From the NCBI GenBank assembly GCA_964016885.1, contig OZ024740.1, positions 304,110,001 through 304,174,000 on the forward strand: 64,000 bases of DNA, written 5' to 3'. This DNA comes from Eledone cirrhosa (Eukaryota). This document shows, one piece after another, positions 676 through 61,596 of the stretch (within the stretch, counting starts at the first letter, position 1; each line of letters opens with the position of its first letter). Below the pieces are notes generated by a model. It was not told the DNA's origin and did no database searches. It was given only the letters and a program-made list of their open reading frames with translations. A program made the position numbers and the translations under genes.

Positions 676-867
676 ATATAGAAATGGCTTCTACAGGACG
701 AGAACTGTTTCATTCGGGAGAAATCATCAAGGCTTCCTGATGATTTCTCTCGAATGAAACAGTTCTCGTTCTGTAGAAGCCATTTCTATATTAATATTTA
801 TACTCTGTTATCTATTGAGTACCTTACTTACTGTGGTTACCCCCGATTGAACCCGGGATAAACTTAT
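676..867 (+). mobile_element. Fold-back PLE-type fragment with degenerate hammerhead-like core
   Basis: ~55-bp inverted arms over 676-791; CTGATGA 737-743, GAAAC 756-760; a second family member lies at 48001-48194. Confidence 0.6.
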
Positions 868-1090: not shown

Positions 1091-1094
<4 letters not shown>

Positions 1095-1104
1095 GGAAGG
1101 TAAT

Positions 1105-1146
1105 ATGATGCTGACGATAGCTAATAAGCTTGAAACTAGTACATCG
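1105..1146 (+). ncRNA. Minimal type-I hammerhead ribozyme motif
   Basis: AUGAUG-CUGACGA-U-AGCU-AAUA-AGCU-U-GAAAC-UA-GUA-CAUCGU: all core nucleotides present, 6-bp stem I, palindromic ACUAGU stem III. Confidence 0.7.
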
Positions 1147-1342
1147 TTCCTGTGTCAGTGTTGAACAAAAAGGTGAGGTGGTTGCCTAAACACTGTACAG
1201 CGTAATTCGGGCTGTTTGTTTGTTTACAAACAAACCGAGCATTATAATAAATGTTCGGTAAACCGATATGTGTGCATGTATGTATATATATACATACTAC
1301 TGTACGTCTGTATACATATATGTATGTACGTATACATACATA

Positions 1343-5273: not shown

Positions 5274-5741
5274 TACGTTAAGACGGGCGTTCCGGAAAGT
5301 GAAAGTAAAATTTTTGACAACTGTGAATTTTTTTTTTTTTATAGTGAAAGTTACGATACACACGCGATTATATGGATTTCTTAATATATATATATGTGTG
5401 GGTGTGTATATGTGTGTACACTGTGAATTTGTTTGTTTATTTACAACAGGTCTCTATAGTGATATGGTGTTAATTAGTATTGCGTGTGTGATTATTTTTT
5501 CTTTAGATAGACGTTAAACGATGATGATGACACAAACACATATATATATACAAACACACATATATATATACATACAGACACACATATATACACACATATA
5601 CACACCCACACGTATATATATATTAAGAAATCCATACAATTGCGTGTGTATCGTAACTTTCACTGTAAAAAAAAAAAAAAAAAAAAATTCATAGTTGTCA
5701 AAAAATTTACTTTCACTTTCCGGAACGCCCGTCTTAACGTG
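5274..5741. mobile_element. MITE with ~120-bp terminal inverted repeats
   Basis: ACGTTAAGACGGGCGTTCCGGAAAGTG... is mirrored at ~5612-5740; it interrupts a repeat that is contiguous at 18060-18140. Confidence 0.8.
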
Positions 5742-6291: not shown

Positions 6292-6633
6292 TTTAGGCGG
6301 GGTGGTCAGACATCCCGTCTAATTGGATATGGTATACTGGCACATAGTCAAACAAGGAAGAAGGAACATACCTCAATTTTATGTTATAGAAACTTTTTTT
6401 TAATAGGAGCAATTACAGAATATATTCAAATACATTAGTGCTCCTAGGTTGGGATATATTTTAGTCGTCATATAAAACCGCATGGTGTGATATCGTCTTT
6501 TGGATCATTGCGTGAGAAAACACGTCTATCGCTTCCGAGTTATCATCGTCCAAGAGCTATTGTCTCAGCTACTGACGTCAGAACTAAGGGCAGTTAATCG
6601 ACTGCCTTCACATAGATGGCGTGATCTTCTACA
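6292..6633 (-). repeat. 3' LTR
   Basis: Direct repeat of 10827-11183; starts TGTAG on -. Confidence 0.95.
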
Positions 6634-6699
6634 TGGCCTCCCACCAGATTTTTAGAAAATTAAATAAAAATCGGTTCATCGAATCATGTATGTAGAAAA

Positions 6700-8014
6700 A
6701 CCGCTTAGCAACCAGCAAAAGAAGCAGGTGTGTGTGCGAAAGAAAAAGTCGGGGGCGTAGCTCAGGTGCGATAGCATCTGTATCCAAATGTGCTCGTTTG
6801 AGTCTATCAATCGAAACCGTCTCTCTGGAACCCTTAATGTCTACAGTGAAATGTTTCTCTGAACGAGCTAATACACGGTAGGGTCCAGAGTATGGTTGTG
6901 TGAGAGGTGGTTTCACAGCATCGTTTCTCACAAACACATAGGTCCACGAGGCAATATCCCTAGGGACTTCAAATTGTATAGTTTGCTTCCTCGTATCAAT
7001 CGGCGGCAGGTCCTGAAAATAAGAACGCAGACGGGATACGTAGGAAAGCGGATCTTGTTCAGCAAGCATTTGCCCGGGAGCAAGCATTTGCCCAGGTAAC
7101 GCTAGAGGAGCACCATATAACAATTCGGCCGGGGAGAACCCAAGGTCCTCCCTTATGGTTGACCGAATCCTCAACAACACAATAGGGAGGTACTCGCTCC
7201 AGCGCGTAGAGTCAGGAGAAGTCCGTAGAGCGGCTTTCAGTTGTCGGTGGAAGCGCTCCACCATTCCATTAGAGGCAGGATGATATGCAGTAGTTCGGAT
7301 GGGTTTAGCGCCGATGATCTTCGTAAATTCATGGAAGAGGTTCGATTCAAACTGCCTTCCACGGTCCGTGGTAATTGACGTTGGTACTCCATATCGAGCG
7401 ATCCATCCAGACACAAGGGCACGCGCTGTGGTCTCAGCAGTGATATCCCTCAAGGGGATGGCTTGGGGCCATCGCGAAAAACGATCGATTACCATCAATA
7501 AGTAATTGTAACCACCGCTGATGGGCCAAGGTCCCACGATGTCCACATGAATGTGGCGAAACCGGGCGTCCGGGTTACTAAAAGTACCAAGAGGAGTCTT
7601 AATATGTCTATTAACTTTCGATTTCGGGCAAGCAACACAGGAACGGCACCAGACAGTAATTTCACGTCTCATATTTGGCCAGAAGAATCTAGCCGTTATG
7701 AGTTTTATTGTGGCAGATCCAGGATGTGAAATGCCGTGCAAAACAAGAAACACAGTTCGACGATGGTTCAACGGAACAAAAGGGCGTGGCGTATCCAAAG
7801 AGACGTCGCAGAGGATCCGTTCGTCTGCGGTCGGTAAAGTTAGGTTTTTCATCCTGCAATTCACAAATTCAGGTGATGTAACATCCAACGATTCGAGGGT
7901 AGGCTGATCGGCTGCCAAGCGATTCAAATCTATGTCATCGGACGACGAGACTGAAGTAATCGGTAAACGAGACAGGGCGTTGAATATCATTTGTAAACTG
8001 AGAGATGAGGTCAA
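6700..8014 (-). pseudogene. Gypsy integrase
   Basis: HHCC ([12 protein letters not shown]), DDE ([23 protein letters not shown]) and GPY/F (PYSGPYRV) motifs; 18-bp in-frame duplication [12 protein letters not shown]. Confidence 0.92.
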
Positions 8015-9625
8015 TATGCCTAGTTTCGCTAGGCGAGTATTTGTCGGCCTTTGCTTGCAAGGCGAATGTCAACGGCTTGTGGTCCGTGAAGATGGTAAAC
8101 GTTCTTCCCTCAAGCATGTGCGAAAAATGTTTCACTGATAAATATATTGCTAGCAACTCCCGTCCAAAGGTGCTGTAGCGGGTTTCGGCAGGTTTCAGCT
8201 TCCTGGAGAAAAATTCCAACGGTTGATCGTTTCTACGTTGCTGCAAAACTGCTCCCACGGCAGTATCCGACGCATCAACACAAAGCGAAAGCTTAGTGTT
8301 GGACACTGGGTGAGCTAGCAAATATGCATTGGCTAGAGCAATTTTCGTACTCTCAAAATCCTGGAGCTGAGTTTCATTCAAAGAAATGTCTCTATTTTTC
8401 TTTCGGCAATTTTTCAAAATTTCCGTCAAAGAGAAGAGTAGCTTAGCACAATTAGGCACAAATTGCCTATAAAAATTAATCAGCCCCAAGAATTGGCGCA
8501 ACTGGCGGAGTGAGGTTGGTGGAGGCAAATCCTCTATAGCTTTAACTCTCTCAGGAATAGGTCGAATACCGTCAGCGTCAATGACGTGACCCAAACAATT
8601 CAAAGATTCGGAACCAAAAACACATTTTGATGGATTAATCCAAACATTGTAATTCTTCAAACGACAAAATAGAAGTTCCAGATGGCGCAAATGCTGTTCT
8701 GGAGAAGAGCTCGCAACAAGAAGGTCATCAATGTAGGTGTATACAAAGTCGAGGCCGCGAGTGACCTCATCCATAAAACGCTGGAAGGTGCTAGCAGCAT
8801 TCCTTAACCCGAAAGGCATGGTGAGAAATTCGAAAGAAACAAATGGCGTTTTCGGGATGTCGTCTCTATTGACAGGAATTTGGTTATAGGCTCGTATCAA
8901 AATCCTGCAAATGAGGGATAGGATACCGATCCGGTACGGTCATCGAGTTCAATCTTCTATAATCTCCAGTGGGTCTCCAATCGCCAGAAGATTTTGGCAC
9001 CATATGTAATGGAGATGCCCACGGGCTCGTGGAAGGACGAATAATTCCGAGCTGTAGCATATGATCGAACTCGGACCGTGCTGCTTTCAGTTTGTCCGCT
9101 GGCAATCGATGGGGACGCGAAAAAATCGGAGCGCCAGTTGTAGTAATAAAATGCTCCGTGGCGTGGCCTGGATCAGTGACTCTAAAATTTTCATGAGTCA
9201 GTTGCGGGAACGATTTCAACAGTCCATGATATGGGTTTCCAGAGTTAGCAATGAAGAAAGTCGGGCTAACTGTAGAAAATTCCGCCGTCCTGCCACAAAG
9301 AGAAAAACCAGTAATATCGTCGATTAGGCGTTGGTGACGAACGTCCACCGTCAAAGAAAAATGGTGCAGGAAGTCCGCGCCCAAAATCGGGTATGGCAGA
9401 TCAGCAACAGTGAAAACTCTTTTGAAATCCCGACGAAGATTTCGGAACTGAAGAGGAAGCGAGATCTGTCCAAAAGTTCTGATTGTTGACAGCTTGCAAT
9501 TCAATCGACGACTCAGGAGGAGTTACTGTCATAGTATTAACAAGCCAAATACTGCACGAAGCTCCTGTGTCCACTAGGAAGGCTCTTCCAGACAGGAGGT
9601 CCTCAATGAAAAAATGGCAGTTCCG
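7935..9625 (-). pseudogene. Gypsy protease-reverse transcriptase-RNase H, frameshifted
   Basis: FLVDTGAS (~9560-9583), [40 protein letters not shown] and FTDHKPL, split over several frames. Confidence 0.93.
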
Positions 9626-9729
9626 TTTTGTCTCGCAGAGTTCACTTGCCGCCTTTAGTGACTCTGATCCATATTTCCCGAGGCCGAATAATTACACGGA
9701 GGCCGGCAATACGCGAAGGTAGCATGGTA

Positions 9730-10405
9730 CCAGCACAATGATGGGTTGCTGGCGGGCGAAGTAGTACGCCGACGTGGAGTCGCGAAAGAACGCGAACGAC
9801 TCCTAGGCCGACGGGAATACGGCCTATTCTCCCTTCATAATCGAGCGACTTGCGTCAAAGCGTCAAAAGCCTTCAACATGGCATCCTAGCGTGTCGAGGC
9901 GGGCTGCAATATGCGAGTCCGAGGCGGTAGCCTTTTTAGAAAATTACACGATTCGATCCGCGGAGGCAGCAATTTGCTCCAAAGAGCTGGTGTCCACTAT
10001 ATTTGCCAAAATAATTTGGACGTTGTTTGGCAGGCGAGAGAAAAATAATTTTTTTATAAAGGAATTATCCTGTTCGGGCGATTCACTGAGGTCCCTAATG
10101 TGGCGCAAAAATTCGGACGGCGACCTATCGCCTAGATACTCATCCTTCAACAATCAACGAAATCTGCTTTCAGCAGAACGACTGTTCCTTCGAAGAATTT
10201 CTTCCCGCAACGAATCATAGGAAATACTGGCCGACGGGATCGTAATCAAATCTTTCACTGTTACAGCGAGTGAAGAAGGAATACCACTTACTAAAAAGTT
10301 GAGCTTTTGCTCGGTTTTCACTTCGTTGGCAGCGAAATAAGCGTCGAGCTGCGCAAACCAGAGCTTAGTATCACCTGAGAACGCAGGCAAACCAGGACCA
10401 CTCAT
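9730..10405 (-). pseudogene. Gypsy gag, interrupted
   Basis: LPAFSGDTKLWFAQLDAYF, LGDRSPSEFLRHIRDL and LFFSRLPNNVQIIL are typical of this gag type; stop at 10154-10156. Confidence 0.85.
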
Positions 10406-10807
10406 CGTAAATCTATTTCCACATGGACGAATAAAAATAAGTAATGATCAAAACGACGGGAAAACAGCACAGTTTTCCCTCAACATCCATAAAGTTGCCG
10501 CAAGCAAAAGAAATTCAGTCACAGTACAAGAAATAGTAGCGAAAGTCCGAAGAGTGGTATCTGTGGATCAAGATAGCCATTATGAAACAAGATGGCGTCG
10601 CCTTTCTTTTCCAAAACAAGAATATGGTCGCGTGACGAGGCTAAGTCAATCAGATGGCTGCATTTGAAGAAGAAAGACAATGTGCGGGAATGTTAGCTGG
10701 CCAGTCAGCCATTTTGAAAAAAACAATTTTTTTTTTTTTTTGTATAAGACGAACAATCTTCAATTTAAAACGAATGGCGAAATTAAGTAGGATTCGTTTT
10801 CATACTT

Positions 10808-10825
10808 AATCGTCGAGAGTCACCA
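10808..10825 (-). other. Primer-binding site, probably tRNA-Trp
   Basis: TGGTGACTCTCGACG one nt after the 5' LTR; resembles the complement of the eukaryotic tRNA-Trp 3' end (TGGTGACCCCGACG). Confidence 0.7.
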
Positions 10826-10826
10826 C

Positions 10827-11183
10827 TTTAGGCGGGGTGGTCAGACATCCCGTCTTATTGGATATGGTATACTGGCACATAGTCAAACAAGGAAGAGGGA
10901 ACATACCTCAATTTTATGTTATAGAAACATTTTTTAATAGGATCAATTACAGAATATATTCAAATACATTAGTGCTCCTAGGTTGGGATATATTTTAGTC
11001 ATCATATAAAACCGCATGGTGTGATATCGTCTTTTGGATCACTGCGTGAGAAAACACGTCTATCGCCTCCGAGTTATCATCTCAGCTATTGTCTCAGCTA
11101 CTGACGTCAGAACGTGACGTCAGAACTAAGGGCAGTTAATCGACTGCCTTCACAATCGACGCTAGATGGCGTGATCTTCTACA
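10827..11183 (-). repeat. 5' LTR
   Basis: Direct repeat of 6292-6633 with ~7 substitutions and ~4 indels by eye. Confidence 0.95.
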
Positions 11184-12407
11184 TATGTTAGAGACACAGT
11201 GTGATGATCAGAGCGTTCTATGTATTTCACTATGATTTGAGGCATGGACTTCACAACGATGTTGCTGGATATCACTTTTCTGCTTGTTAAAACTTAATCA
11301 CTAATAGTTTAACCTTTAGTTACAATATTTCTGATGAAAAATACTTAACTAATGTATTGGTACGCGATGGAGCCCACCCACAGCCCCGGCGGACAGAATG
11401 GAGAAGGTGTTTCCCCGGAGGACGGCAAGGGAGACGCGCTGGAAAAGCCACTCCAACTCGCGGGGCTCACACCTGCGGCTAGCCAGCTCAGCGCCGATGG
11501 TGGTGAGTGTGGGTTTCCATAGTCTGCTGGTAATCTAGTCTTCACATATGTAGGGTAACACATCCTTAAAGATTTAATACAGAGAGTTTAAGACTTGTTG
11601 GCTTTCCTAAAGCTGATTTAACCAGTTTACCAATGTAACACACTTCTGTACTTCTGACAGTTCGTAAAGCCACGGGTAAGAATTGGGTGCCACGTATGAG
11701 GCCAGTGGCAGATAAGATGTCCTGACAAGAATTGGCTGCACCCTTACCCTTTTGAGTATGTGAGGGCGGTTACAATGATGATAGTCGTAATGATGATAAT
11801 TTCAATCCGCATAGCTTGACAGCATGCCACCACAAAACGTCATACATTTGTTTGATATTGGGCACCATACGACCATTTCCTTCTAATAAAGAACGGAGAG
11901 TAATTTTGTTACTGTATCGACTCTCTCAACTACCCATACTCAGCACAAAGGTTTCGTTCTTTTGCAACTTACAACACAACCTTCATGTTTGGCCGCGAAG
12001 AAACGGCCACAGGACAGTCTTGTAATAGCATATCAACTATGTTGCTTTCTCGAAAAGACTATTCCAGCTTCTTAAACACTTTTCTTTTAATTTTATAGTT
12101 TTTACTGTTATTTCCTCGGAGTACGTAACGAATTCTAACATTTCTTGTTAAATCTAACCCATACCTATTATTTACAGCAACGCTATTTCGGTTCTTTATG
12201 GTTAAATCAGTATTGTCAAGCCATACACACCGAGAACGACGGGTTAAACTACCAACATATAAATCGACTATAACAAACATGTTTCAATAACCGACTAAGT
12301 AAAATTTCGTACAATCTGCTGTATTTCGAAACAACCTGATAACATTTTATTTAAATACGATTTGCTTAGACCAGAGATGGGGAACCTGCGGTCTTATATG
12401 TCTTTCT

Positions 12408-12681: not shown

Positions 12682-12769
<88 letters not shown>

Positions 12770-12845
12770 CGAAGGAAATGTGGTAAGGAACCAGGTGGAC
12801 CATAACGCACCAAAGTACTCAATACTTGGGGTAGTAGAGTGGGTA

Positions 12846-12948
12846 ATAGGAACCAGTAAGACCCCGACAGCTGAGCTCAAGCCGTTTCGTCCAGAATTAG
12901 CCGTCGAAACGGCTTGAGCTCAGCTGTCGGGGTCTTACTGGTTCCTAT
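12846..12948. repeat. Perfect 44-bp inverted repeat in a PLE-type fragment
   Basis: Arms 12846-12889 and 12905-12948, 15-nt loop; element flanked by (TA)n; homologous fragment at ~60195-60292. Confidence 0.9.
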
Positions 12949-12964
12949 ATATATATATATATAT

Positions 12965-13110
12965 ATATTCATTTATTATGGTTATTGGTGAGTTTTGTTA
13001 CTCTAAAGTTTCACCTGCGCACTCACAGGATCATCAGTCTTGTCTGATGATCCTGTGAGTACGTAGGGAAGACTCCAGAGTACAAAGGCTTAGCCATAAT
13101 AAATGAATAT
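12965..13110. mobile_element. Fold-back PLE-type fragment with hammerhead core in both arms
   Basis: + arm TTGT-CTGATGA-TCCTG..TAGG-GAAGAC-TCCAGA-GTA-CAA; - arm CTGATGA-TCCTG..CAGGT-GAAAC-TTTAGA-GTA-ACAA. Confidence 0.7.
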
Positions 13111-13578
13111 TTAAACTCTACTTAGGTATTGTGCTTTCATTCTTACGTCCGTCAATTATTCACGTACTCTCAGGTTTTGAATAATCATCCCCTGCTTATT
13201 AATTTTTCAGACCCCCCCCCCCCCGGTTTTTATTCCACCCCGTTCCCCACACGCTTATCAAATTTTGCTAATCTATCTCCTACAACCTCTGCCACACCCT
13301 CGAATGAACAACAAACTCAAACCAATTCCTTCCATCGTTACATCCACTCCACATTCATCGCTCGCTACACAACTCACCATCAACTTCGCTACACTCAACT
13401 CACATGCCTATTCGCTACATATCTAACTATTATTTTAGTCTGGATAAGGTCCTTGTGGAAATAGAATCTGAGTGGCCTCAGACGATTGAAGGTATATCTG
13501 TAGCGAAATGTGTCGACCCATGTCTTGTGAGTGAACTTGGGTAGACAGAAATTGTTTGGAAGCCTTTCGAAAGGACTA

Positions 13579-22500: not shown

Positions 22501-25500
22501 CTGAGCATTCCACAGACACGCTTACTCTTAACGTAGTTCTCAGGGAGATTCAGCGGGACAAGGATGACCCTTTGAATTACAGGTACAACTCATTTTTGCC
22601 AGGAAAGTGGACTGAAGAAACATGAAATAAAGTTTCTTGCTCAAAGGCACAACGCATAACCGGGAATCGAACTCACGACCTTACGATCATGAGCCGAATA
22701 CCCTAACCACAAAGCCTTCACGCTTTACCTCTGATACTACAGAACTCACCATTGCTAAGTTATTATTATTAACTACTGTGTAAAGCTGGTGGAGTGGCGG
22801 AATAGAAAGAGTTGTGTGTTGGATAAATAGATCTTTCTTAAAAGCCGTGGCTTCGTGCCAACGTAAGAAACCATTATTAACTAGTGTAGACATGACTGAC
22901 TACACGCTATATGACAGAGCAAAATCCAAATATTTTCAGAAATGGAGAAAGCTTTGTTACTAGTATGTATTTCTTGACAAATAATGGTGGAACGGTGGAG
23001 ACACCAGAACGCCGAAGTAAACGTGCTGTTTCGTCTCTATACTCTAAGTATAACCCTCATCCAAGTCGATTCTGCCTTTCATACTTCGATATCGGTAAAC
23101 CAGTCATAGACTAAATTGGGGCAATTGGCTTTATTGTAGCCCTCCTCCTCCTCCTTCTTCTTGAGCGGTTCGTGCGGCAGAGTCCCCAAACATTCCTTCC
23201 AGCGGATCCTGCCAGAAGCATCTATTTCCAACCGATCCGGCTGGATCCCCAATCGAAACCAGCCGAGTTCATGAATGTTTTCCAACCATTTTGTAACAAA
23301 TTATTTGCTACTGTTCGGGTTGCGTGTTGGCAGAAACTGTAAAACGCTAGACTAAATGCTTTACAGTGTACAGTGTTTTGAATTCAAATCTTATGCCTTT
23401 TATTTCTCACGTTTTAACAAGTGCCATTAAAATACAGCCAAATCTCCTTCAATTCACACCCTACTTTCTTAGAAAACACACCAAAAAACACATTGGATAA
23501 TGTGGTCATGGGTTCTTTGCAGATAGAAAAAAAGACAGGATGATTACGTCTGAAATGCATCTGATCATAAAGGTCTACTCGATCGGTGTCTATCTAGAAC
23601 TAAAACCCAACAACAACAAAACAACTTATGTGGAACCATAATTTAAGAATTGCTGTATCATTTACTATTGTTGTATTTGTTGTCAGGGATAATAAAGAAA
23701 GACAAGAATGAATGAAGAAAAGAATTGTTTTCTTATTGAGACTTAGGGGTAGGCTATACTGAAAATGGATGAATAGACCATGTGTTTTAATGACACTGGT
23801 TAAAACATGAGAAATAAAAGGCATAAGATTTGAATTCAAAACACTTTCTTCATTCAGTCTTCCCTTTCTTTATTATCCCTGACCACAAATATAACAATAG
23901 TAAATGATACAGCAATTCTTCTTCTTCGCCGCCCACTTTTTCCTAAGAGAGTCGTGAGGGCAGAGTCCTCCAACATTCCTTCCAGTGGATCCTGTCAGAA
24001 GCAACCATTTCCAACTGATCCGGCTGGATCCCCAATCGAAACCAATCGAGTTCACGGATGCTTTCTGACCATTTTGTAACAAATTATTTGCTACTGTTGG
24101 GGTTGCGTGTTGGAAGAAACTGTAAAACGCTAGACTATTTGTGGTCATGGATAATAAAGAAAGGGAAGACTGAATGAAGAAAGGATTTTTTTTTATTGAG
24201 TATCATTTCTAGTTAACGTACGTATTTATTCATTACATTAACCAGTTTTTCTTGATTGTCGCTTTGAAAGGAGTGTCATTTTAGTCAAGCCATCATTTCT
24301 AAGGCTATCATATTATTATTCTCGTCTGGATTTTAAAATGTTCTTCAATTTTATTTTTATAGAACATTTAAAATGTTGTTCTAAATAAGAAGTTTCATCG
24401 AACTGGACGAAAAACTTGTTAATTCTCTAAAAATAAAAATGAAAATACAATTCTTCCTTTTAATGGATTTATTGTTTAATGTTAAACACAACACACTATT
24501 GATATAAACTAATAATAAATATACCAGCAGATCTTTATTTGAAAGCGATTGTTACCAAAGAAGTTCAAATTATTTCAAAAGCTAAAACTATTTTCTCATT
24601 TTCATTTTCCTCGTCAAAAAGGGTGGAGTGAATTTTATTTAGACAAAAAAACAAAACAAACAACAACAAAAAAAACAAAAAAAAAACAACCTAATTTTTT
24701 GTATAAATTTTCCCAAGTATGATATTTAACGACATTGGTGACTAGAGTTATTCACAGTCGCAAACTATGACTCAGCAAGAAAAAAAAAGAACAACAACAA
24801 CAACAACAAAAGGATAATCTAACTTTGAAAACATCATTTTATTCTCTTTATGAAACACATCAATAAGCATCAGACAACAAATATCATATGGCTATATTTA
24901 GAGACATTCTTTTCATCGAGATAACTACATAGAATAAAGGGGAGCAGCAGTGAAGCTACCCCCGACTTAACATGACAGAATAATTTACATAACAAAAATA
25001 CTACACTGAAATACTGTTACAGTCAATTAACTTCGGAAATATCGAACACACACAGCATTGTTTCCAACTAGAAGTTAATTAGGGATCATTGTCCTTGTGG
25101 TAAGGAAGAGAAGGGACCTACCTTTGAGATTCCACTCGAGTCCTGACTAAATTTTCCTGCGCGGGTATAACCCTGTTTTACGTCCGGCCAAAGAGTATAA
25201 CGAGTCTCTCACATGCATGTCCAAACGTTACCGCTTCCTAACCAAAGAGCGCGTGAAATGCCCACGAACTCTGATGTCATGTCACTGGCCCCTCGCTTCC
25301 GGCAAACTAGTCCCACAGTCCTTTACGAAAAAAATCTTACACATCACTTCTCATCCAAGATGATCCTCTTTGCAGCACTCTCGGTGAAAATACCCCTACA
25401 TCACGGCATGTTTTCAACATAGTTCCCTTCACAAATTTCTATCTGTGCTTTCAGTTTCGTCGCACCAGCCGAACAGGGCGATTGGTCTAAACAGCGTCCC

Positions 25501-26499: not shown

Positions 26500-28000
26500 A
26501 GAAACAAAATTGTCATGACCCTAAAAACGTTTTGCAAGGATTTTCTTTCTCTAAGAGAATATACATTAAACAGATTGCATGCAAACGACTTCGGAGTGAA
26601 GAGTGTTCTCACTTGCATTGAAATGTCCATTATTAGAGTTGATATGAAGCAGGTCGTTATGTTGTTTTATTTTTATTGAACACGACAAAATTTACTGGAC
26701 ATATTAGAATTAATAGCAAAACAGTCATGCATTTCTGCAATCATGTGCAATGGTGTTACTTTGGCCGAACGACTCAATAGCGAGGAGTAATATAGAAGAG
26801 AACTCTATATCTGGTTCTTTGACAGCTCCACCAATGATTACGATTCCTTCCATGACATTTGTGATCGCCTTCTTTGGGATGGGGCATATTATACAATACA
26901 TCCAAAGAGCGGAATAAAACAATGTAGAAAGAAAATAGATGAAGAGTTAGACGAAGATAGGTACTAGCTATGGAGTACAATAGATTAAAGAGTTAGACGA
27001 AGATAGGTACTAGCTATGGAGTACAATAGATTAAAGAGTTAGACGAAGATAGGTACTAGCTATGGAGTACAATAGATTAAAGAGTTAGACGAAGATAGGT
27101 ACTAGCTATGGAGTACAATAGATTAAAGAGTTAGACGAAGATAAGTACTAGCTATGGAGTACAATAGATTAAAGAGTTAGACGAAGATAGGTACTAGCTA
27201 TGGAGTACAATAGATTAAAGAGTTAGACGAAGATAAGTACTAGCTATGGAGTACAATAGATTAAAGAGTTAGACGAAGATAGGTACTAGCTATGGAGTAC
27301 AATAAATTGAGAGTTAGATTAAGACATGTGCTAGCTATAGAGTACAATAGATTAAAGAGTTAGACGAAGATAGGTACTAGCTATGGAGTACAATAAATTG
27401 AGAGTTAGATTAAGACATGTACTAGCTATGGAGTACAATACTTGAGAATACTGGAAGAGATATCAGGGACAATAGCTTCAATGGTTTGAAGCAAACAGGT
27501 GTGCTTTTACACTTGGTGAGATGTAATGGTAAGACTGACGGAGTATAGAATGAAAATTTTGGAGGAGTGTGTGCTGAGGCATTGTGGAGTTAAATGCAAA
27601 ATGGACAGAAAACGATGAGTGGAGCTGAAGGAATACAGGGTCATCTTGGATAAGGAGTACTGGGTAGGAAGATTCGCACAGTTGGTAGAGATCTTGGCGT
27701 GAGAATAGAAGAACCGATTATAATTTGAGAGGCAGGAGAGTTTGCAGGCTGTGGATGTACAAAGGTATATTTTGTTTTCCAGATAGAAATCGTGTAGGAG
27801 TTTCGGTAGATGAGTATCTCCAGGTGTTGTAGCATCGTTCTTCGCCCGTTTATCTGCGGTGCAGATGCCTGTGAACCTCTTAGAGCATCTGGGGTTATAG
27901 GATTTAGTTGTATGAGAGGGGAGAATGGACATGTCTAAGAGGATGGTTTCGGTTAGTGATGAAATACATTCACTGCAATGAACACTCCGACAAGTTAGCT
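26500..28000 (-). mobile_element. Highly decayed CR1/L2-like LINE remnants
   Basis: PIPKK-type RT motif near 26870-26890; similar decayed pieces at ~25550-25900, 29690-29900 and 49380-50740. Confidence 0.45.
26942..27440. repeat. 46-bp minisatellite, ~10.8 copies
   Basis: Unit AAGAGTTAGACGAAGATAGGTACTAGCTATGGAGTACAATAGATTA. Confidence 0.97.
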
Positions 28001-31427: not shown

Positions 31428-31449
31428 CTTTGTTTTTTAATTTGTTTTG

Positions 31450-32620
31450 CAAGATTTCTTATCTGAAAATGTGTGTTGAAACATATTTTTTATGGAGGGT
31501 CATGCTGCCAATAAAAACACACGCACCTGATGGATTTCACTTCAATTTATTATAAATATCCGGTTGGTAGGTTGGTTGGTTCAATAACCGGATGGTTGTT
31601 TATATATTGTCAAAGCTCTTTTGCCACACATTCTGTGACCTCCTCAGTGACTGGTTTCTTATTTTGTGTCTCTCCTTTGTTCTGTCCTGCACCATCTTGA
31701 TTTTGTGTGTTGTGCTGTTTGTTTGATTTGCGCATGCGTTACATCCGGGTGTGTATGTAATTTTATTTAGTTATTTATGTGTTTATTTACTTTTCACTAA
31801 TTGGTTGTTTGTTCTATCTCTGTGTGTCTGGTTTGTTTTATTAGTTTGGTTTTTGTGTGTTTCTCTATGTTTTCATTTTGTCCTTAATTACTAGTTGTGA
31901 TGTTGCTATTCCACTCATGTTTTCTGTTTAATTTTGGTTGGAGTTCGTTTATGTTTGTCGCCTCTGTAATTTGTCTGATCATTGCATCTTTTCTGTATGT
32001 TGATATAATTTTTATCTCTATGTTCTCTAATGTCCCCCTATGTTCTATTTTGACATGTTGGTGGAGCACTGGTCGGTTTTTCCTACCCCGGAGTTCTCGC
32101 CAGTGTTCATTTATCCTTTCTCCTATGCTACGGATTGTTTCACCTATGTATGTTGTGTTCTTATTCCTACACTGTCCCTCAGTACATCTTATAATATATA
32201 CTACGTTTCTAGTTTTGCAGTTAATTTGTGGGCTTAATTTGCAGACTATGCATTCCCTATCAGTGCAGCACTTTTTTTTTTTTTTTTGAAAATTAATTAG
32301 GGCCTTTATGGGAATACCTGGGCTTTCAACTATGCTAATATTTAATTTTGGTTTGTCTAGAGCATTTATAAATCCGTAAGCTAGTTCGCCTCTGTGGGTT
32401 GCATTGACGAACATTACGCTCTGGTATTTATTGAGTTGACTTTATTGGTCTTCTTAATTCTTTCTATCTTATTCCAAAATTTGCTCCTATATATGGGGCA
32501 AGTTCCATTTGCATCGTTTTTTTACAATCTTTGTCCATTTGGCCTTGACTCCTTTATATACTCTGATCCTATCTCGGTGATTGTAGCCAGAGAACTGCAT
32601 GCGGTGAATGAAGTGTTGTA
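31450..32620 (-). mobile_element. Penelope-like element (Neptune-like), 5'-truncated, with GIY-YIG endonuclease
   Basis: ORF 31884-32414: C-x-C..C linker, NVVYIIRC..YIGETIRSIGERINEH; upstream PIYRSKFW and FVNATHRGELA; hammerhead-like motif 31609-31651; ends next to a (TA)/(CA) tract. Confidence 0.88.
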
Positions 32621-33175
32621 TGTGTCTCTCTAATTGCTGGCGGTGTTAATGCTAGAAAGAATTATTAGCATTCTGTGTAAGACGCCAGCAGTGTTGACTG
32701 AAAGTCTCACCAACTTGGATACTACCGGAAATATTATCTTCCTCCTCCTCCTTTTTTCTTGAGAGGGCCGTGGCGGGGTCAGTCCTCAAACACTCTCAGA
32801 AAGTTAATTGTTGCAGGAATGCTACCACTTAAAATAAAATTTCGCCGGAGATAGATTAGCAAAATTTGATAAGCTAGGATGAGGAGGTTGATTTGAAACA
32901 AATATTAAACGGGAGGAGACGATGATTCGTGACCCGAGAGTACTTTACAAATGTCACCTGAAAAGGAATGGTCACCAGAAATACTAAATTCTTATCTTAA
33001 ATTGTCTTGTACCAGAAATAATAGGACACTATATATTGAGAAAACTGGGTGTAGATGTCGAAACGGTACAATGCAAAAATAAATACCTTGGAGTATTTCA
33101 TTACATGCTACCACCTAAAATAATATTTCACCAGAGATAGATTCGGGGAGAGAGGGGGGGGGGGGGGTGATTATT

Positions 33176-39895: not shown

Positions 39896-40045
39896 ATGGG
39901 TCTTCTTACAGAAGGGTCTCCGCTTTCTTGGGAAGAAACGAAAACTTATGCCAACCACGTACGGAAGCATGGGGTGAAACAATTCATTAATCAATATAGT
40001 AAACTTAAGGATCGTCAAAAAGATGTTCTATACTGGGGAGATGAG
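39896..40045 (+). CDS. GCLC: Glutamate-cysteine ligase catalytic subunit, coding exon 1
   Basis: MGLLTEGSPLSWEETKTYANHVRKHGVKQFINQYSKLKDRQKDVLYWGDE is the diagnostic eukaryotic GCLC N-terminus; donor GTAAGT at 40046, phase 0. Confidence 0.97.
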
Positions 40046-43768: not shown

Positions 43769-43831
43769 TATTTTATTATATATATTTCAAGGGTACCAAA
43801 ACACATTGGTATGCTTACCTCAGATAAAATA
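43769..43831 (-). ncRNA. Hammerhead-like motif (A9 to U variant)
   Basis: UAUUUUAU-CUGAGGU-AAG..UACCAA..UUGGUA..CUU-GAAA-UAUAUA-UA-AUAAAAUA; 8-bp stem I. Confidence 0.5.
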
Positions 43832-44990: not shown

Positions 44991-45002
44991 ATATATATAT
45001 AT

Positions 45003-45325
45003 ATAGTTATATTTGGGAATGGTCATTTTAACAATTGAACACATACACCACATAACTTTCACTTTATTTTTATTCTTCCCTCAAAGCTCTTTTGTCACAC
45101 CAATCTGTGACCTCCCCAATGACTATCGATTTTTGAGCTTCAAACAACAAAATGAAATAGAAATGTAAGACCAGAAAAAGGAGAGGCACAAAAAAATCGA
45201 TAATCATTGAGGAGGTCACAGATTGGTGGGGTGAAAGAGCTTTGATGGAAGAATAAAGATAAAGTGAAAGTTATATGGTGCATGTGTTCAATTGGCAAAA
45301 TGACCATCTCCAAATATAACAATAT
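45003..45325. mobile_element. Inverted pLTR pair of a Neptune-like PLE with decayed hammerhead motifs
   Basis: Arms ~45003-45136 and ~45188-45325; ATCA-TTGAGGA-GGTCACAG..GAAA-GAGC-TT-TGAT at 45203-45246 is homologous to 31609-31651. Confidence 0.8.
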
Positions 45326-45588
45326 CGGTTTCAATACTCGATTTCAAATCAAGATTCCTGCTTAACAAATACACATATATATATATGTGTGTGTAAAAGG
45401 TAAACAAATAACAACACAATCTGTACAGTATATGGAAGGAATAATATATATATATTTATATATGTCAATGATATCTACATATGACATATGTATAATATGG
45501 GCGCGTGTTATATGTATATGAAAAGCAAAGTGAAATAAAGCATCTTGACCAGGAATTGAATATGGTTAAGAGTCCAACACCCTAACCG

Positions 45589-45627
<39 letters not shown>

Positions 45628-48000
45628 CACACAAACACACTCAAAAATATAGATGGAAAAATTAGCTTTTAAATGTAATTTTCCCATCTATATTTTTATT
45701 TTTTATTTTTTTAAAATTATATTTCCAACTTTTTCTCCTTAAAAAAAAATCTACCTTTTCTTCAGACCAATAATATATAAACACATTGAGCTAATTCTGA
45801 AACTACGTGGGCAATTATATATACATTTGAGCTTTGTATATATATTTTCACCTTTGCTATATATATATATATATATATAGTATACATGTGTTATATATAA
45901 AATATGTATGTAATTAGTATATTCAGTATGCTTGTTTTTAATACCACCACCACCCCTAGCTGACTCCACCCATAACCCTATCATTGCTACCTTGGAACAA
46001 TAATACCATGTATATTTGTGTACGCCCACATTTCCAACCCCGTCATTGATGCCTGAACATTTAACGCTCAGCCTCTACACATACACATCAACCAACACAA
46101 ACTGGACTTGCTCTATTAAACAAATACTTGCTATCACCAGTAACCCATACTACCTCCAGGCACTTCATATTCCCCGACAAACAACATTTTAAATAGAATT
46201 TGGAGCTCTGTCTGTTAGGTTCCCAATATGTTTTTTTATTTTTTTTTATTTCTGGCCTGTGCTTAATTTTCCCTGGCTTTTGTCATTGTTAGTGTTGTGG
46301 TTGTTAGTGTTTGTGTTGTCTGCCTCGGTGTCTTTATTATGGAGCAGCATGGTTTCAATGGTTATGAAGTTCACTTTGCAATCATTAGGTCCCAGGATCA
46401 ATCATTCTGTATGGCATCTTGGGCAAGTGTCATTTATCATATTCTTGGGTTTGTTAGTGAAATTGGTTAGATGGAAACTGTAATTCAAAGAGCCAGCTTT
46501 GTCACACTGAAGTACATGTGTCTGTGGAATGCTCAGCCTCTTACATGTTAATTTTGTTAACAAGCTATTGTTTCATTGCTGGAACAACTGGAACACTATC
46601 ATCAAAACTGATGGAGATCCACTAGTCTCTTCCTTATTCACAAAGTTAACTGTACCGACCATTCTGGAATTCTAATGAATTTATGAGATGTTAAGCTAGT
46701 AACTTCTATGATTATGTTTTAACCTTCTTTACCTTTCATAATACCATCTAATAGGTACAGAACAGGTTGATAAAGGCATAAAAAACAAGTAAATTTACTC
46801 TTTATTTTCTCTCTGTTTGTTCCATTGATCTTTTGGATGGTGATTGTTTAGCCATTAGAAAAAGACACATCTATTCCATCCACCAGTTTTGTAACAACAT
46901 TTTGTTACTCTGAGTTCAAATCCCGCTGAGGTTAACTTTGCCTATCATCCATACGGAGTCGATAAAATAAAGTACCAGTAATGTACTGAGTAATTGCTGG
47001 CTTTGTGCCAAAAGTAGAAACAATTATTTGTCATAGGGCGATGGATTGGCAGTATTGGTAGAGCGTCGGACAACATACGTTGTGGCATATAGTTACAGCC
47101 CTTTTACGTTCTGAGTTCAAATCTTGCCAAAGTCAACTTTGCATTTTATTATTACAAGTTTGATAAAATAAAGTACCAGTAACACACTAGGTTGATTTAA
47201 TCGACTTTCCCCTCCCCTCAAAATTGTTGGCCTTGTGCCTAAATCAGAAACCATTATTAATCCTTAAAGGGTTGATAAAATAAAGTACCAGTAACACACT
47301 AGGTTGATTTAATCGACTCTCCCCTTCCCTAAAATTGTTGGCTATGTGCCTAAATCAGAAACCATTATTATTATTTGTCATCTTTATATGCCCTACTTGT
47401 AGAAAACAAAATAGCTATAGGGTTTTCAGGATAATACTATTACAATATTTATATCTAATGTAGAAAACAAGATAGTTATAGAGTTTTCAGGATAGTACTA
47501 TTAAAATATTTATATCTAATATTTGTCATCCACCACAGGTGTAATGAAGAAGAGTTAAATCTCTGTGTTCTGCGATGCAAATAAATTTCCCTTGTAACAC
47601 TAACCTAGTTAATGTTAAGTTGTTCATGTTATTGATTAGTCCCATGTCAGTCATGATCCACCAGTCCAGCAGATCTATATATGATCAAATCTGTTGCAGT
47701 TATGACCATTCTGTTTTTATTTTGAAACATAATTTAGCTAGGACTACATTATCCAATTCACCTTTGCTCTTGTAAAATGATAGAGTTGTTTCTGATAGGG
47801 CCTTCTGGAAGGCATCTCTGAGAACTTGGACTCTCCGACTGAAGGAAGAGGAGGAGGAAGATGTTCTGCTGAACTTCATACTTTTATCCACTGAGTTGAG
47901 GGATATTGTTTATGTTGGACATCAGCCTCATCAATTTCTGAAGCAGTGCCAAAAAGACATGCACACATAAAAAAAGAAAAACAAACATATATATATTTAT

Positions 48001-48194
48001 ATAAGTTTATCCCGGGTTCAATCGGGGGTAACCATAGTAAGTAAGGTACTCAATACATAGTGGAGTATAAACATTTAATATAGAAATGGCTTCTACAGGA
48101 CGAGAACTGTTTCATTCGGGAGAAATCATCAGGGCTTCCTGATGATTTCTCCCGAATTAAACAGTTCTAGTCCTGTAGAAGCCATTTCTATATT
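48001..48194. mobile_element. Fold-back PLE-type fragment, same family as 676-867
   Basis: Hairpin 48077-48194; the tail is on the left in inverted orientation. Confidence 0.7.
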
Positions 48195-54893: not shown

Positions 54894-54902
<9 letters not shown>

Positions 54903-55567
54903 ATACTTGGGGAGGGTCATATTTGTGTAATATTGCCAGAATTAATAACAGAACACACTCACTGTTTGGTTGGTTTTCGCTTTTCGCTTCTGTGTCTTTT
55001 ATATCGGTAATCTAATTTATTCGGTCCTCAATGTTGCCATTGACTGACCAACGGTCAAAAATAATACAGATACAATATAGACACAAACACATATATATAG
55101 TTTATCAAAGTTCTTTCGTTGCACATCTGCAACATCGTCAAATATAGAATACATTAACCAATACACAGTCACCCAATCACGAACACACATCAAACAAAAC
55201 ACTATACACACACGCAAACGCATGCGCAAAGAAGACAAAATAAAATAAACAAATAAATAAATATATAAACAGACTAAATAAAGATGGCGTAGAAAATACA
55301 ATGTAACGGGAGGAAACAATAGCACCACTGACGATGTTGCAGATGTGCAACGAAAGAACTTTGATAAACTATATATATGTGTTTGTGTCTATATTGTATC
55401 TGTATTATTTTTGACCGTTAGTCAGTCAATGGCAACATTGAGGACCGAATAAATTAGATTACCAATATAAAAGACACAGAAGCGAAAACCAACCAAACAG
55501 TGAGTGTGTTCTGTTATTAATTCTGGCAATATTACACAAATATGACCCTCCCCAAGTATAACAATAT
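54894..55567 (+). mobile_element. 5'-truncated PLE: inverted pLTR, 3'UTR and pLTR with hammerhead motif
   Basis: ~240-bp near-perfect arms 54894-55140 and 55329-55567; spacer shares ACGCATGCGCAAA and AAGATGG with the PLE UTR at ~31690-31742; CTGACGA-T-GTTGCA-GATG-TGCAAC-GAAA-GAAC-TT at 55328-55361. Confidence 0.85.
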
Positions 55568-58163
55568 TTGTTTTGACACACGATTTCATATAAAAAACCT
55601 CGCAAAGCTATATATATATATATTTCTTTTTGCATATACAGGAGATTACCTTTATGTGATCTGACATATGTTTGCATCTAAAGTACATTTACTTTTATAG
55701 CCTGTGACCTTAGATAATAAAGGTCAGGGGAAATGAGTGAGAATGAGGTGATTATAAATGATATGGCAATTGATATGAAGTTTTTAAAGAAGGACTGGGG
55801 TGGGTATCTTTGTGTTTGAAGAAGTAATAGAATTTATATAGAGGTGTTTGGGATATATGAAATTAGGGAGGAGTGTGGGTTTAGTGTGTGTGGGGGGAGT
55901 ATAAGAGCTATCATTATGGGAGATAAGAGAAAAAAAGTTTGTTTAATCAAGAAACTTGTAAACCTGTAGTAGTATCAAAGAAACAAGAATAATCACCCCA
56001 TCCCACCCGTCACATTTTTACTTGAAAAAAACCTAGTTAATATGACAGTTGTGTCTTATTTTATTTTTTAAAGATAAAAAAATCTGTACTTTTTTATGTA
56101 GTAGTGCTGGTGGTAGTAGTATCAGTAGTAGTAGTAGTAGTAGCTACTGTTGTTTAACCCCAAGACAACCCTGATCCCACAGTGACCATTCCATCCAATG
56201 CTTTTTCCTCTGTGCAAGAAACCACATTATTCAATAGGGTTTTTGTTTTTAATTGTAGCATGTGGTTTGAGGAAGATTTAGCTACTATTTACAGCAATTT
56301 GAGCAACCATGAAGAGGCTCCTTCATTGGCTCAGGGTATGTTGTAATGGCCATGACTGGTGTGATAAGCTGTCTCCTATCTTATAAAAGAGACACAATTT
56401 TCCCCACTTTAATTGTTATATACAGCTACTAAGTGACACCACTCACTTAACTTCTTTCTTTCTTTTTCATTTAGTATTTTGCCAAATAACCTATTTTCCT
56501 CTTTCACCCCCACCCACACTTGTGCTGTAACCTGGAGCAGTTCAAGCTACTTACATCACAGTGGTTATCTGTTTTATGAAATAATTACTCAAGTCACTAG
56601 GCTTGTCATGGTCATAGAAGAATAAAGAAGAAAGTAGAATAGAGTTCTAGGTTGACAGACATAACAAATACTGTATTGTTATTCTATTCTTTAACTCTTT
56701 TGAGACCACCTCTGCTGTTCTGATACAAAATCATGCATTTTAAAATGTTCTTGTGAAGTCACATGGCTTGGTGGTGAGGCTGTTGTGCTCATGAATTGAA
56801 TACCTGAACTAATCAGTTCATTGTGTACTTCAGCCAAACACTATTTCACATTGTTCCAGTTCACTTGGCTGGAAAAGAGGAATTGCAATGACACGTGTTC
56901 CCAGCTATATCGACCTCTGCTTTTCCCTTGATCAGCAATGATAAAAGAAGACCATCCTTCTAAAATGTTCTTATTTAAATTAAAACCTCACACCATAATT
57001 TAATGTAAGAACCTATTTGTTCAGGTTTGTTCCGAAAAGCAATTTTTTTTTTTTTTCAAACCACCTCATTCGTCATTCAAATTTTATTTATATAAATGCT
57101 TCATATAATAAACAGGATGAAAGTAAAAAAAAAAAAACAATAATGAATGGGGAGGGGAGGGTTAGACTGCACCTCAGTCAAGGTTGTATATCTTAGCTGT
57201 GTCCTGCAGCAGACAAAATGGGGACAACATTGCCACAAAAAACAACCAGTGACACCTACTGCTTCAGCCACTCAAACACCAGATTAATAATTGTTTCTAC
57301 TTTTTGGCACAAGGCCAGCAATTACCCAGTGCATTACTGGTACTTTATTTTATCGACCCCCGTAAGGATGAAAGGCAAAGTTAACCTTGGTGGGATGAAG
57401 TCCAACACCTTTACCAACTAAACCACACACCTCCACAAGGTTTTATAGGTCCAGTACATATGCCTCATACTAGTTTTTCCATCATATTTTTCATGAAATA
57501 AAGTTGCAACATACATTATATTTCATTAAAAATATCGTTATAAAAGGGTGAAATGTTTAAAATGTTCTTTTGAAGTGAGAAGATTGAATATACCACCTTT
57601 CTTTCTGTTTGTCTGTCTGTCTTTCATGGACTTTAGACTGTATTCCATTCATTGTGTTGTACCTTTTTAAGTCACATAGTCTCAGTCATTTAACTCTTTT
57701 GTTATCATATTTCTAATTTTAAAAATAATCAAGAATTTTGAGGGATTTGGTAATATAGCTAATTTTCTCATTAAGCTGGTGTTTGGAACATAACTTCACA
57801 AAAGTTACTCCCATAAAATTATGATGGAAGATTTATCAATACTTTAAAATAAACAGTCTTGTACCATAGAACCAGGGGTGGTTTCAGACTGTTTGGTATC
57901 AAAAGGGTTAATTATTTATGGCTTAATGAGAGGGAGAAGGGCAATGCTTATGACTCTTTTCAGGAAGTCTCTTATCTCTAGATGTGTGGAAGGAAGGAAG
58001 TTAACTAGTTTACTTGGTTGATAACTGGTCCCACTTGCATCACAGCCGTATGTTTAGTAATAGGTGAGATTCTAGATGAGAGTCGATGAAACAGTAGTAG
58101 GTAGCTCAGCTAACATTGAGTTAAAATGCAGATTGCTTTTGTATCAAAATACGTCACTAAAAC

Positions 58164-59992: not shown

Positions 59993-60314
59993 ATTTGTTC
60001 AGAATGTAACTATTTGACTATTGAAATTATCAATTCTGCTATGTATCTTCTTTATTCTTGACATCATCTATATTTCTGAAGTGAAACTTCATTGATATAT
60101 AATGTTTATGTGCTATATATGCTTTAGCTGACCGGTTTCTTTCAATAATGCATATATATATATAAATCAGGGTGGATTTAGTTTGAAACTGGTTAGACCA
60201 TTACTCAACAGTGTACTTGGTACTTGGGGTAGTAGAGTATGGTTATATCATAAAGAGTCAGGACCCAGATGGCTGAGCTCCTGCTGTTTCAACAGCTTGT
60301 TCCATATATATATA

Positions 60315-60646: not shown

Positions 60647-61144
60647 TATATATATATAAACGATGATGATGATGTATATATATATTAATTCATTATAAGT
60701 ACAGATTAAAGTTTAAGCAAAAAATCGCTGCTTTCACCCTTTTACAGGATGGATTGGCAGCATTGGTAGAGGGTTGGACGCCATGCTTTCCAGCATAGTT
60801 ACGTCCCTTTACGATCTGAGTTCAAATCCCGGTGAGGTTGACTTTGCCTTTCATCCTTACGGGGTCGATAAAATAAAGTACCAGTAATGCACTGCATAAT
60901 TGCTGGCCTTGTGCCTAAAGTAGAAACAATTATTATATATATATAGAGCGGTGGATTGGCAGTATCAGTAGAGGGTCGGACGTCATGCTTTGACGCATAG
61001 AGTTACGGCCCTTGTCATTCTGAGTTCAAATCCCACTGAGGTCAACTTTGCCTTTCATCCTTACGGGGTCGATAAAATAAAGTACCAGTAATACACTGGG
61101 TAATTGCTGGCCTTGTGCCAAAAGTAGAAACAATTATATATATA

Positions 61145-61390
61145 TAGTATAAACAAAGTTTCATACACTTAATATGTATGTGCAACCGTTAGTTTTGGGG
61201 TCAGGTTATGGTCACCAATGTGGACAGATATATGAAAAGGGAAATAGTCCCTTTTTCATAAATCTGTCCACGTGCCCGAGGAAGGACCAGTTTAAAAGTG
61301 CCTACTCCAATATACAGTGTTGGCCATAACTGGACTCTGAAACCAATGGTCACATATACATGTTAAGTGCATGAAACTTTGTTTATACTA
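61145..61390. mobile_element. Fold-back PLE-type fragment with nested hairpin and decayed hammerhead motif
   Basis: Arms 61145-61213 and 61321-61390; inner hairpin 61220-61271; CCGAGGA (61276)..GAAAC-CAATG-GTC. Confidence 0.65.
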
Positions 61391-61486
61391 AATAAGCTCT
61401 CTTGCTACAGATTGAGCACTGTTTTCCTTGATCTTTCATCTATGGATTTCTACACACATTTGATGTTTGTTTTTCTTCTCTTTTAG

Positions 61487-61596
61487 GTGGAGTACATGTT
61501 AATAAGATTTGATCATGAAAATGAGGTGGTTCAGTTACTGTTAAACTCTACAGAATTACTTCTATCTCTTCAGAAACAGGAACTTGAATCAAAAGA
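61487..61596 (+). CDS. GCLC: Glutamate-cysteine ligase catalytic subunit, coding exon 2
   Basis: Polypyrimidine-TTTTAG acceptor; VEYMLIRFDHENEVVQLLLNSTELLLSLQKQELESK continues WGDE|VEYM in frame; GTAAGT donor at 61597, phase 2. Confidence 0.95.

Follow-up and report, generated by a model that had tools for sequence, protein, structure and literature searches.

The window (the whole stretch of 64,000 nt of Eledone cirrhosa DNA analysed in this study) consists of repeat-rich animal DNA with SINEs, which we take to resemble those of octopus, MITEs, and LINE and LTR-retrotransposon remnants. At positions 12725-13499 it contains two neighbouring hairpins, A and B, and the sequence duplicated together with B:

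12725..12768, no strand: (TA)n target tract to the left of A, preceded by (TC)n at 12685-12725
12769..12845, minus strand: tail of A, 77 nt, on the long arm only, homologous to A' (a solo relative of A, see below)
12846..12889, minus strand: long arm of A, with the stem I 3' strand, GTC, a palindromic stem III and CGAA
12890..12904, plus strand: spacer of A, 15 nt, likely from the short arm (its native loop and the 3' strand of its stem II)
12905..12948, plus strand: short (tail-less) arm of A, with cleavage predicted after 12928
12946..12968, no strand: (TA)n tract between A and B
12968..13037, minus strand: short (inverted, tail-less) arm of B, with the full core CTGATGA...TGAAAC
13038..13043, plus strand: spacer of B, 6 nt, predicted to form the 5' strand of stem I in the long arm
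13044..13163, plus strand: long arm of B, with hammerhead core, stem I 3' strand and tail
13164..13499, plus strand: non-PLE sequence (MITE remnant 13164-13280 and other sequence), duplicated with B at 1377-1927

Both hairpins are head-to-head 3' ends, at (TA)n targets, of what are probably Penelope-like retroelements (PLEs), with the Hydra clade as the likely source. A preliminary description of this DNA had reported a 44-bp perfect repeat turning around at CGAAAC, and we found exactly this in A, whose arms (12846-12889 and 12905-12948) form 44 of 44 pairs across the 15-nt spacer; the probability of such a repeat arising by chance is about 6e-19. The long arm ends at the predicted C11.1, the base of stem II, and the short arm stops 5 nt short of the position of the conserved ACTCT...TATTGAGTAC stem-loop, which starts at 12840 in the tail. 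CUGANGA is absent from both arms and from A', all of which start downstream of it, and A has no full stem II. The earlier reading of A as a half-hammerhead stands as far as the 3' half and its palindromic stem III are concerned; with CUGANGA missing, we infer the status itself from the layout and the shared tail. Compared with the 14 nt upstream of GAAAC in A', the spacer matches at 8/14 positions in the plus reading and at 3/14 in the minus reading, which suggests that it belongs to the tail-less arm. Both A (12894-12915) and A' (60282-60297) can form a 5-6-bp hairpin that encloses the core GAA by pairing the stem II 3' strand with the stem III 5' strand; the differences between the two could reflect CpG decay instead of compensation. 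A mir-127 match in Rfam over A (34.5 bits against a cut-off of 60) was taken as chance, and a supplement search with four short motifs revealed no parent of A.

The second element described earlier as turning at CTGATGA is B, with a 6-nt spacer between arms (about 12962-13037 and 13044-13113) that are 73% alike. Its short arm ends exactly at C3 and has no stem I 5' strand, and its long arm carries GAAG in place of GAAA and a degenerate tail stem-loop at 13115, so that a complete hammerhead is obtained only by combining the two arms. The claim that two fold-backs are stacked in one (TA)n tract needs to be amended: both hairpins are real, but (TA)n encloses A only (12725-12768 and 12946-12968), whereas the right side of B runs into a MITE remnant. 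Stacking in (TA)n is in any case expected from the target preference of PLEs.

The segment 12946-13499, starting at the (TA)n end of B, occurs again at 1377-1927 (approximately 550 bp; 321/334 identical positions over the part 13164-13499). The second copy lacks A, so A was likely inserted after B, into the (TA)n flank of the latter. The duplicated sequence includes the MITE remnant and a possible exon (repeat 1901-2006 / 2317-2429), which we presume to be hemopexin-like; Pfam gave this exon no support. The event could have been a DNA duplication or a 3' transduction reading through the hairpin. An origin of the arms of B from two templates found no support (52/64 identities arm to arm versus 64/70 and 46/56 copy to copy), and the identities fit B as an old insertion that was duplicated afterwards.

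Related elements were identified elsewhere in the window (end positions relative to C3 of the hammerhead core). Five of them (G, I, A', F and H) had not been named in the preliminary description:

676..867, plus strand: hairpin C, with a C3/-6 junction and a 77-nt tail (arms 676-791)
1091..1257, plus strand: F, a solo complete hammerhead that begins at -20, where a predicted extended stem I has its edge
31430..32797, minus strand: H, a broken coding PLE remnant with a CX4CxxC linker, a GIY-YIG ORF (31884-32441) and a 3'UTR
45001..45370, plus strand: hairpin G, with a minimal hammerhead and ends at -15 and -72
47999..48194, minus strand: hairpin D, of the same family and with the same junction as C (arms 48077-48194)
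54895..55610, plus strand: hairpin E, with a minimal hammerhead and a junction at 55140/55329
60165..60303, minus strand: A', a solo relative of A (85/119 positions identical)
61141..61440, plus strand: I, a decayed Hydra-type hairpin whose long arm alone carries the tail stem-loop (at 61396)

All seven hairpin loci have the same architecture, i.e. a 5'-truncated inverted copy lying head to head with a direct copy, and in all seven the tail is found on one end only (77 nt in A and C). A tail stem-loop is common to A, A', B, C, D and I. The (TA)n sequence adjoins A, A', F and the short arms of B and I, the flanks of C and D are AT-rich, and C, F and the second copy of B are stacked between (TA)n tracts at 668-1590; the (TA)n flanks mask any target-site duplication. 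No ORF is present in A, A', B, C, D, F or I.

As had been reported, C and D both turn at the CTGATGA core. Their hammerhead is complete on the spacer-carrying arm, the intact stem I 5' strand lying on the tail-bearing arm of C and on the tail-less arm of D; because they represent a single family with a single junction sequence, they are not fully independent. The inverted arm of I ends at about C3, beside a nested 52-nt palindrome (61220-61271), and the 5' end of A', which has (TA)n tracts on both sides, lies inside the predicted stem II. F is solo; its type I hammerhead is minimal, and stem I is predicted to be extended.

E and G share homology with H in its 3'UTR and its minimal hammerhead (at 31647), and both have approximately 45 nt of extra tail on one arm only. 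The junction of E had been listed among those breaking at (C)TGANGA, which is correct for the inverted arm, ending at TGACGA (C3/U4); the direct arm is longer by 187 nt of upstream 3'UTR-like sequence and has a longer tail. The H ORF encodes CX4CxxC followed by GIY-YIG (Pfam PF01541, E 4.5e-6), and H (E and G by homology) thus shows the CX2-5CxxC linker and C-terminal GIY-YIG of the Neptune/Nematis type. H has kept more than 1.1 kb upstream of its hammerhead; ahead of the ORF, where the telomerase-like RT would lie, the frame is broken and a MITE cuts the element. Searches revealed 1439 relatives of H at E up to 0.001; in 8 of these, taken from 150 listed and scanned in Pfam, no RT family and one weak GIY-YIG were found, and searches of the named protein set yielded no homologs of the H ORF.

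Ribozymes were called with motif descriptors and by comparison with a published table, Rfam having given no hammerhead in the window either at the gathering score or among 111 matches at E up to 10. A strict core-plus-stem-II descriptor produced 8 matches in the window against 0.98 in shuffled sequences (5 were not taken as elements), and a full-motif descriptor at a score of at least 10 produced 5 against 0.07 (2 were dropped), although it missed C/D, G and the short arm of B. Another descriptor scan was too strict (4 matches), and a scan for half-hammerheads served only as a list of leads, since its 34 matches compare with 22.5 in shuffles. Full-motif matches at 43823(-) and 3126(-), with a changed core base and no tail match, were rejected, as were those at 10176(-) and 46605(-). 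Half-hammerhead-like motifs at 948(+) and 52740(+) were not above chance and were excluded from all counts.

Motifs of the complete type I hammerhead occur in B, C/D, E, F and H, and CUGANGA, the GAAA core, NUH and three stems were recognised in B, C/D and F; self-cleavage is a prediction from these motifs. By eye, B, C/D and F match the Hydra-clade layout, A and A' contain its 3' half only, and I is decayed, whereas E, G and H fit the minimal-hammerhead consensus. As monomers the ribozymes fold no better than shuffles (z from +0.06 to -1.29 in 9 sequences). Dimers cofold at 1.9-13.3 kcal/mol below two monomers, but these energies were not used as evidence, because symmetric cofolding trivially favours them.

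Several other identities of the elements were considered and rejected. Non-LTR retrozymes require head-to-tail tandem units, and no tandem array in the window overlaps any hammerhead element; the 46-nt array at 26934-27440 (11 copies, 93% matches) was found to contain no hammerhead core. The elements are not class II MITEs: their arms abut centrally, a unique tail forms one terminus, and terminal inverted repeats are not present at both ends. In L1-type twin priming the inverted part and the direct part come from two separate stretches of one RNA, while here both arms represent the same stretch. An assembly artefact was dismissed in view of the divergence of the arms and the existence of a second family copy.

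The census comprised 17 hammerhead-bearing arms in 10 insertions, the second copy of B having been dropped as a duplication, and provided 16 informative 5' ends (H is cut by a MITE). Relative to C3, the ends lie at 0 and -6 in each of B, C and D, whose common geometry is C3 joined to -6, at +1 and -187 in E, at -1 (bounded between 0 and -4 by the decayed core) and -45 in I, at -15 and -72 in G, and at -20 in F. The ends of A lie 1 and 16 nt upstream of G12, and that of A' 13 nt upstream. Eleven of the 16 ends fall inside the ribozyme footprint (from the stem I edge to G12, approximately 32 nt), whereas the 1224 nt exposed downstream contain none and the 1447 nt exposed upstream contain 5, and one arm stops at about C3 in 5/7 hairpins. 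Every arm retains stem III and the GAAA position.

Under a memoryless null, which treats paired arms and C/D as independent, this concentration has a probability of approximately 5e-7 (5e-5 without the upstream exposure of H). Counted by event, 6/9 have an end inside the footprint, and P is 0.18, 0.035, 0.0024 and 7e-5 if the upstream length is set to 100, 150, 260 and 500 nt, respectively, so that the all-event test is not significant if only 100 nt lay upstream. One arm in a 5-nt window at C3, found in 4/6 hairpin families, has P from 7e-3 to 1e-5 across the lengths L assumed, with a 6-fold correction applied because the landmark was chosen afterwards. The five previously unnamed elements taken alone gave 2/5 inside the footprint, which is not significant (P 0.06-0.68); I, with one arm at about C3, agrees with the pattern, and G, with both ends outside the footprint, is a counter-example. 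Each Hydra-type stub has an end in the footprint or, in the case of F, at the edge of the extended stem I, and among the minimal type 1/4 informative ends is inside. The pattern is therefore suggestive, strongest in Hydra-type stubs and weak in the minimal type: the non-random breakpoints proposed earlier are supported within this window.

Tail-only searches of the window found no stub without a hammerhead at E <0.01. Planted tails were recovered at 90%/80% identity in 20/20 and 11/20 trials for 30 nt, 20/20 and 15/20 for 40 nt, and 20/20 and 19/20 for 60 nt, i.e. in 74/80 trials with tails of 40-60 nt at 80-90% identity. A tail profile detected nothing beyond its 7 training copies below E 1.5, and a looser regular expression was no better than chance (7 matches versus 6.3). 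A tail-motif match at 26788(-), with no hammerhead upstream and no (TA)n, was not above chance and was not recovered by the profile; if real, it would represent a tail without a hammerhead, contrary to the reading that we favour.

Starting from the arm limits, the junction positions, the one-arm tail and the AT-rich or (TA)n flanks, which can be read directly, we infer all the steps from RNA to junction. The reading we favour, at roughly even confidence, is two-ended priming in (TA)n of cDNAs which stop at helix boundaries of the uncleaved ribozyme and are then joined. Both ends of a cut (TA)n target would prime reverse transcription, one cDNA starting at a distal site and including the tail, and the other starting 4-10 nt before the tail stem-loop and hence being tail-less. 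Synthesis would preferentially end where the template passes from an unpaired core segment into a strand of a helix (for stem I this is C3 and, in A, C11.1 for stem II), with the 5' edge of stem I as an alternative stop (-6 in B, C and D; -20 in F). The 3' ends of the cDNAs would then be joined, with 0-1 nt of visible microhomology.

In A, B, C, D and I the short arm stops 4-10 nt short of the shared tail stem-loop. Such fixed outer ends, together with the one-arm tails, fit a process in which both target strands are extended and two start sites flank the tail. The PLE protein PAc cleaves and extends both strands in vitro from two start sites bounding the tail; it is a predicted dimer, and hammerhead cleavage is dispensable in vitro (PMC11167929). 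The additional upstream bases belong to the tail-bearing arm of B, C, E, G and I, but in D and probably in A they are found on the arm without the tail; two cDNAs made independently would permit this. Two-ended priming is weakened by the small sample from a single window, by C/D being one family, by G lying outside the footprint, by the lack of significance of the unnamed elements and by monomer folds no better than shuffles. Moreover, since the stem I 5' strand of a monomer should be free once its partner strand has been copied, a stop at C3 would need pairing in trans or a bound protein. Dimeric hammerheads have been proposed for PLEs (PMC4209133), and their trans pairing would supply the necessary hold. 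Stopping at the ribozyme is not obligatory, since the inverted arm of one published copy from the Hydra clade measures 966 nt (PMC8557442, File S1).

A more elaborate version, which we regard as rather unlikely, assumes that two RNAs pair as a double hammerhead and position a dimeric RT, with stalling at C3 followed by joining of the cDNAs. The hammerhead would then act in transposition as a structural coupling device instead of a cutter, and reverse transcription primed from both target ends would converge on a ribozyme whose stem I is held by the other RNA. If true, this would explain the inverted pLTRs of PLEs, the dispensability of cleavage and the many solo stubs.

The strongest competitor, possible but in our opinion doubtful, is snap-back self-priming, in which a cDNA ends by run-off at stem I's 5' edge and its last 4-15 nt form a loop from which it copies itself, C3 being a by-product of loop size and the spacers later flipping between arms. 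The spacers of 4-15 nt in A-D and the nested palindrome at the junction of I agree with this, the cDNA of A can form a 6-bp hairpin exactly at CGAA/TTCG (present in A' too), and self-priming has already been proposed for palindromes at inverted PLE junctions (PMC3846280). A tail-less cDNA, however, cannot template a tail-bearing arm, so that D and probably A need the later flip, and the fixed outer end of the short arm requires an extra rule. In addition, arms with lengths between 55 and 246 nt terminate at about C3 even where the partner is 45-187 nt longer (E and I), despite the long spacers; because these partners run far upstream, C3 appears to be a stop in its own right and not a mere effect of loop size. 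In another rival reading the template RNA itself starts near the ribozyme, at a promoter, a splice junction or a nuclease-protected edge, and reverse transcriptase runs off its end without being stalled by the fold. The ends at -6 (B, C and D) and -20 (F) do coincide with stem I edges, and a Penelope intron of Drosophila virilis ends at the 5' end of helix I (PMC4209133); we nevertheless consider such run-off improbable, as it leaves the core-internal ends unexplained (C3; C11.1 and stem II in A and A') and as E, G, H and I keep from 15 to >1100 nt of upstream sequence.

The pattern might also have arisen by a founder effect, selection or chance, a few short non-autonomous hairpin masters having been amplified, long palindromes lost, and only hammerhead-bearing pieces recognised. 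C and D share their junction, B is duplicated, the test on the unnamed elements is weak, and families unlike our queries and without a hammerhead would be invisible; but the same C3 geometry is found in four families, hammerhead-less tails are missing in spite of the recovery of planted ones, and A and A' lack CUGANGA and so were not selected for a working ribozyme. We think this explanation unlikely. Still less credence, indeed very little, can be given to the proposal, one of two in the preliminary description, that ribozyme cleavage fixes the 5' end of the RNA and hence the breakpoint. Complete motifs in B, C/D, E, F and H would permit it, but 0/16 ends lie at the predicted NUH cleavage site, all being approximately 23 nt or more upstream. 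Catalytic mutants leave insertion in vitro unchanged, and in Anolis RNA-seq yielded no reads with an end at the site (PMC11167929). The companion proposal, that the ribozyme structure determines the template switch, is plausible but unproven, with G and the unnamed elements against it.

Hydra-clade PLEs (Craig et al. 2021, PMC8557442) resemble B, C/D and F in the order stem I - ctgatgat - short stem II - tgaa/cgaa - near-palindromic 4-bp stem III (File S2), and also prefer (TA)n for insertion. A similar CTC...GAGCAC/GTGCAC tail stem-loop was recognised by eye in 3/5 Hydra consensus 3' ends compared (Hydra-2_Amil, Hydra-2_Ajap and Hydra-1_Crog); the other two end approximately 30-40 nt past the cleavage site, like the short arms described here. 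The hammerhead listed for Hydra-1_Obim has no match here except, in part, stem III of I, and the tail of approximately 77 nt in A and C exceeds the 30-40 bp given for PLEs (PMC8557442). The Hydra-like elements here have no ORF that could show the protein features defining the clade, a C-terminal GIY-YIG without CCHH and the motifs RWK, DKT and CxCX5C.

The inverted pLTRs of EN+ PLEs share the head-to-head arms, the one-arm tail and the junction palindromes (PMC3846280; PMC8557442, Fig. 2), and differ from the present elements, which are non-coding stubs of 50-250 nt with junctions at fixed ribozyme positions. In Schistosoma, dual minimal hammerheads likewise form opposite-strand pairs, and many solo motifs derive from truncated PLEs (Cervera and de la Pena 2014, PMC4209133); these pairs are 100-700 bp apart, with no junction mapping in the part of the paper available, whereas here the cores lie within 6-15 nt, and A and A', unlike the Schistosoma hammerheads, are putative half-ribozymes. 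The Poseidon PAc studied in vitro (Frangieh et al. 2024, PMC11167929) uses an AT-rich target, as here, and belongs to a different clade; the available part of that report contains no treatment of cDNA termination or inverted joining. Non-LTR retrozymes (bioRxiv 10.64898/2026.07.22.740005) are also short, non-autonomous and PLE-derived, with type I hammerheads, but form head-to-tail tandems with a hammerhead per unit, in contrast to the head-to-head or solo elements of this window.

Inverted 5'-truncated copies with one-sided tails (PMC8557442, PMC3846280) and palindromic head-to-head junctions with proposed self-priming (PMC3846280) were thus already known, and the hairpins and their (TA)n stacking are ordinary PLE features. 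In the titles, openings of abstracts and text passages covered, mostly from non-subscription papers, we found no mapping of PLE inversion points to hammerhead positions, and the breakpoint bias at ribozyme landmarks is apparently undescribed so far. The function of the hammerhead in PLEs has been termed unclear (PMC8557442). A true nucleotide-level clustering of inversion points, both at C3 and along the edge of stem I, would assign the ribozyme fold a role in ending cDNA synthesis; the hairpins suggest that reverse transcription likely halts when it meets the folded RNA, and the bias bears on the formation of inverted pLTRs.

The stubs amount to 10 separate insertions in 64 kb. Two segments (about 39990-40090 and 61490-61600) are likely exons, presumably of the gene for the catalytic subunit of glutamate-cysteine ligase (a short putative exon piece had no Pfam match); if they are real, G, D, E, A' and I would be intronic, and I sits just upstream of one likely host exon. 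The window also contains an LTR retrotransposon at 6292-11184 (terminal repeats 91% identical, split pol frames), which we take to be Ty3/gypsy-like from its ORF motifs, and LINE-type ORFs at 62298-63971, with RT and PHD-finger domains, and at 44236-45006, with a weak PHD match. Fold-backs without a hammerhead motif occur at 5275-5740, 23645-23920, 2938-2982 and 45643-45697, the first of which looks like a MITE with long terminal inverted repeats.
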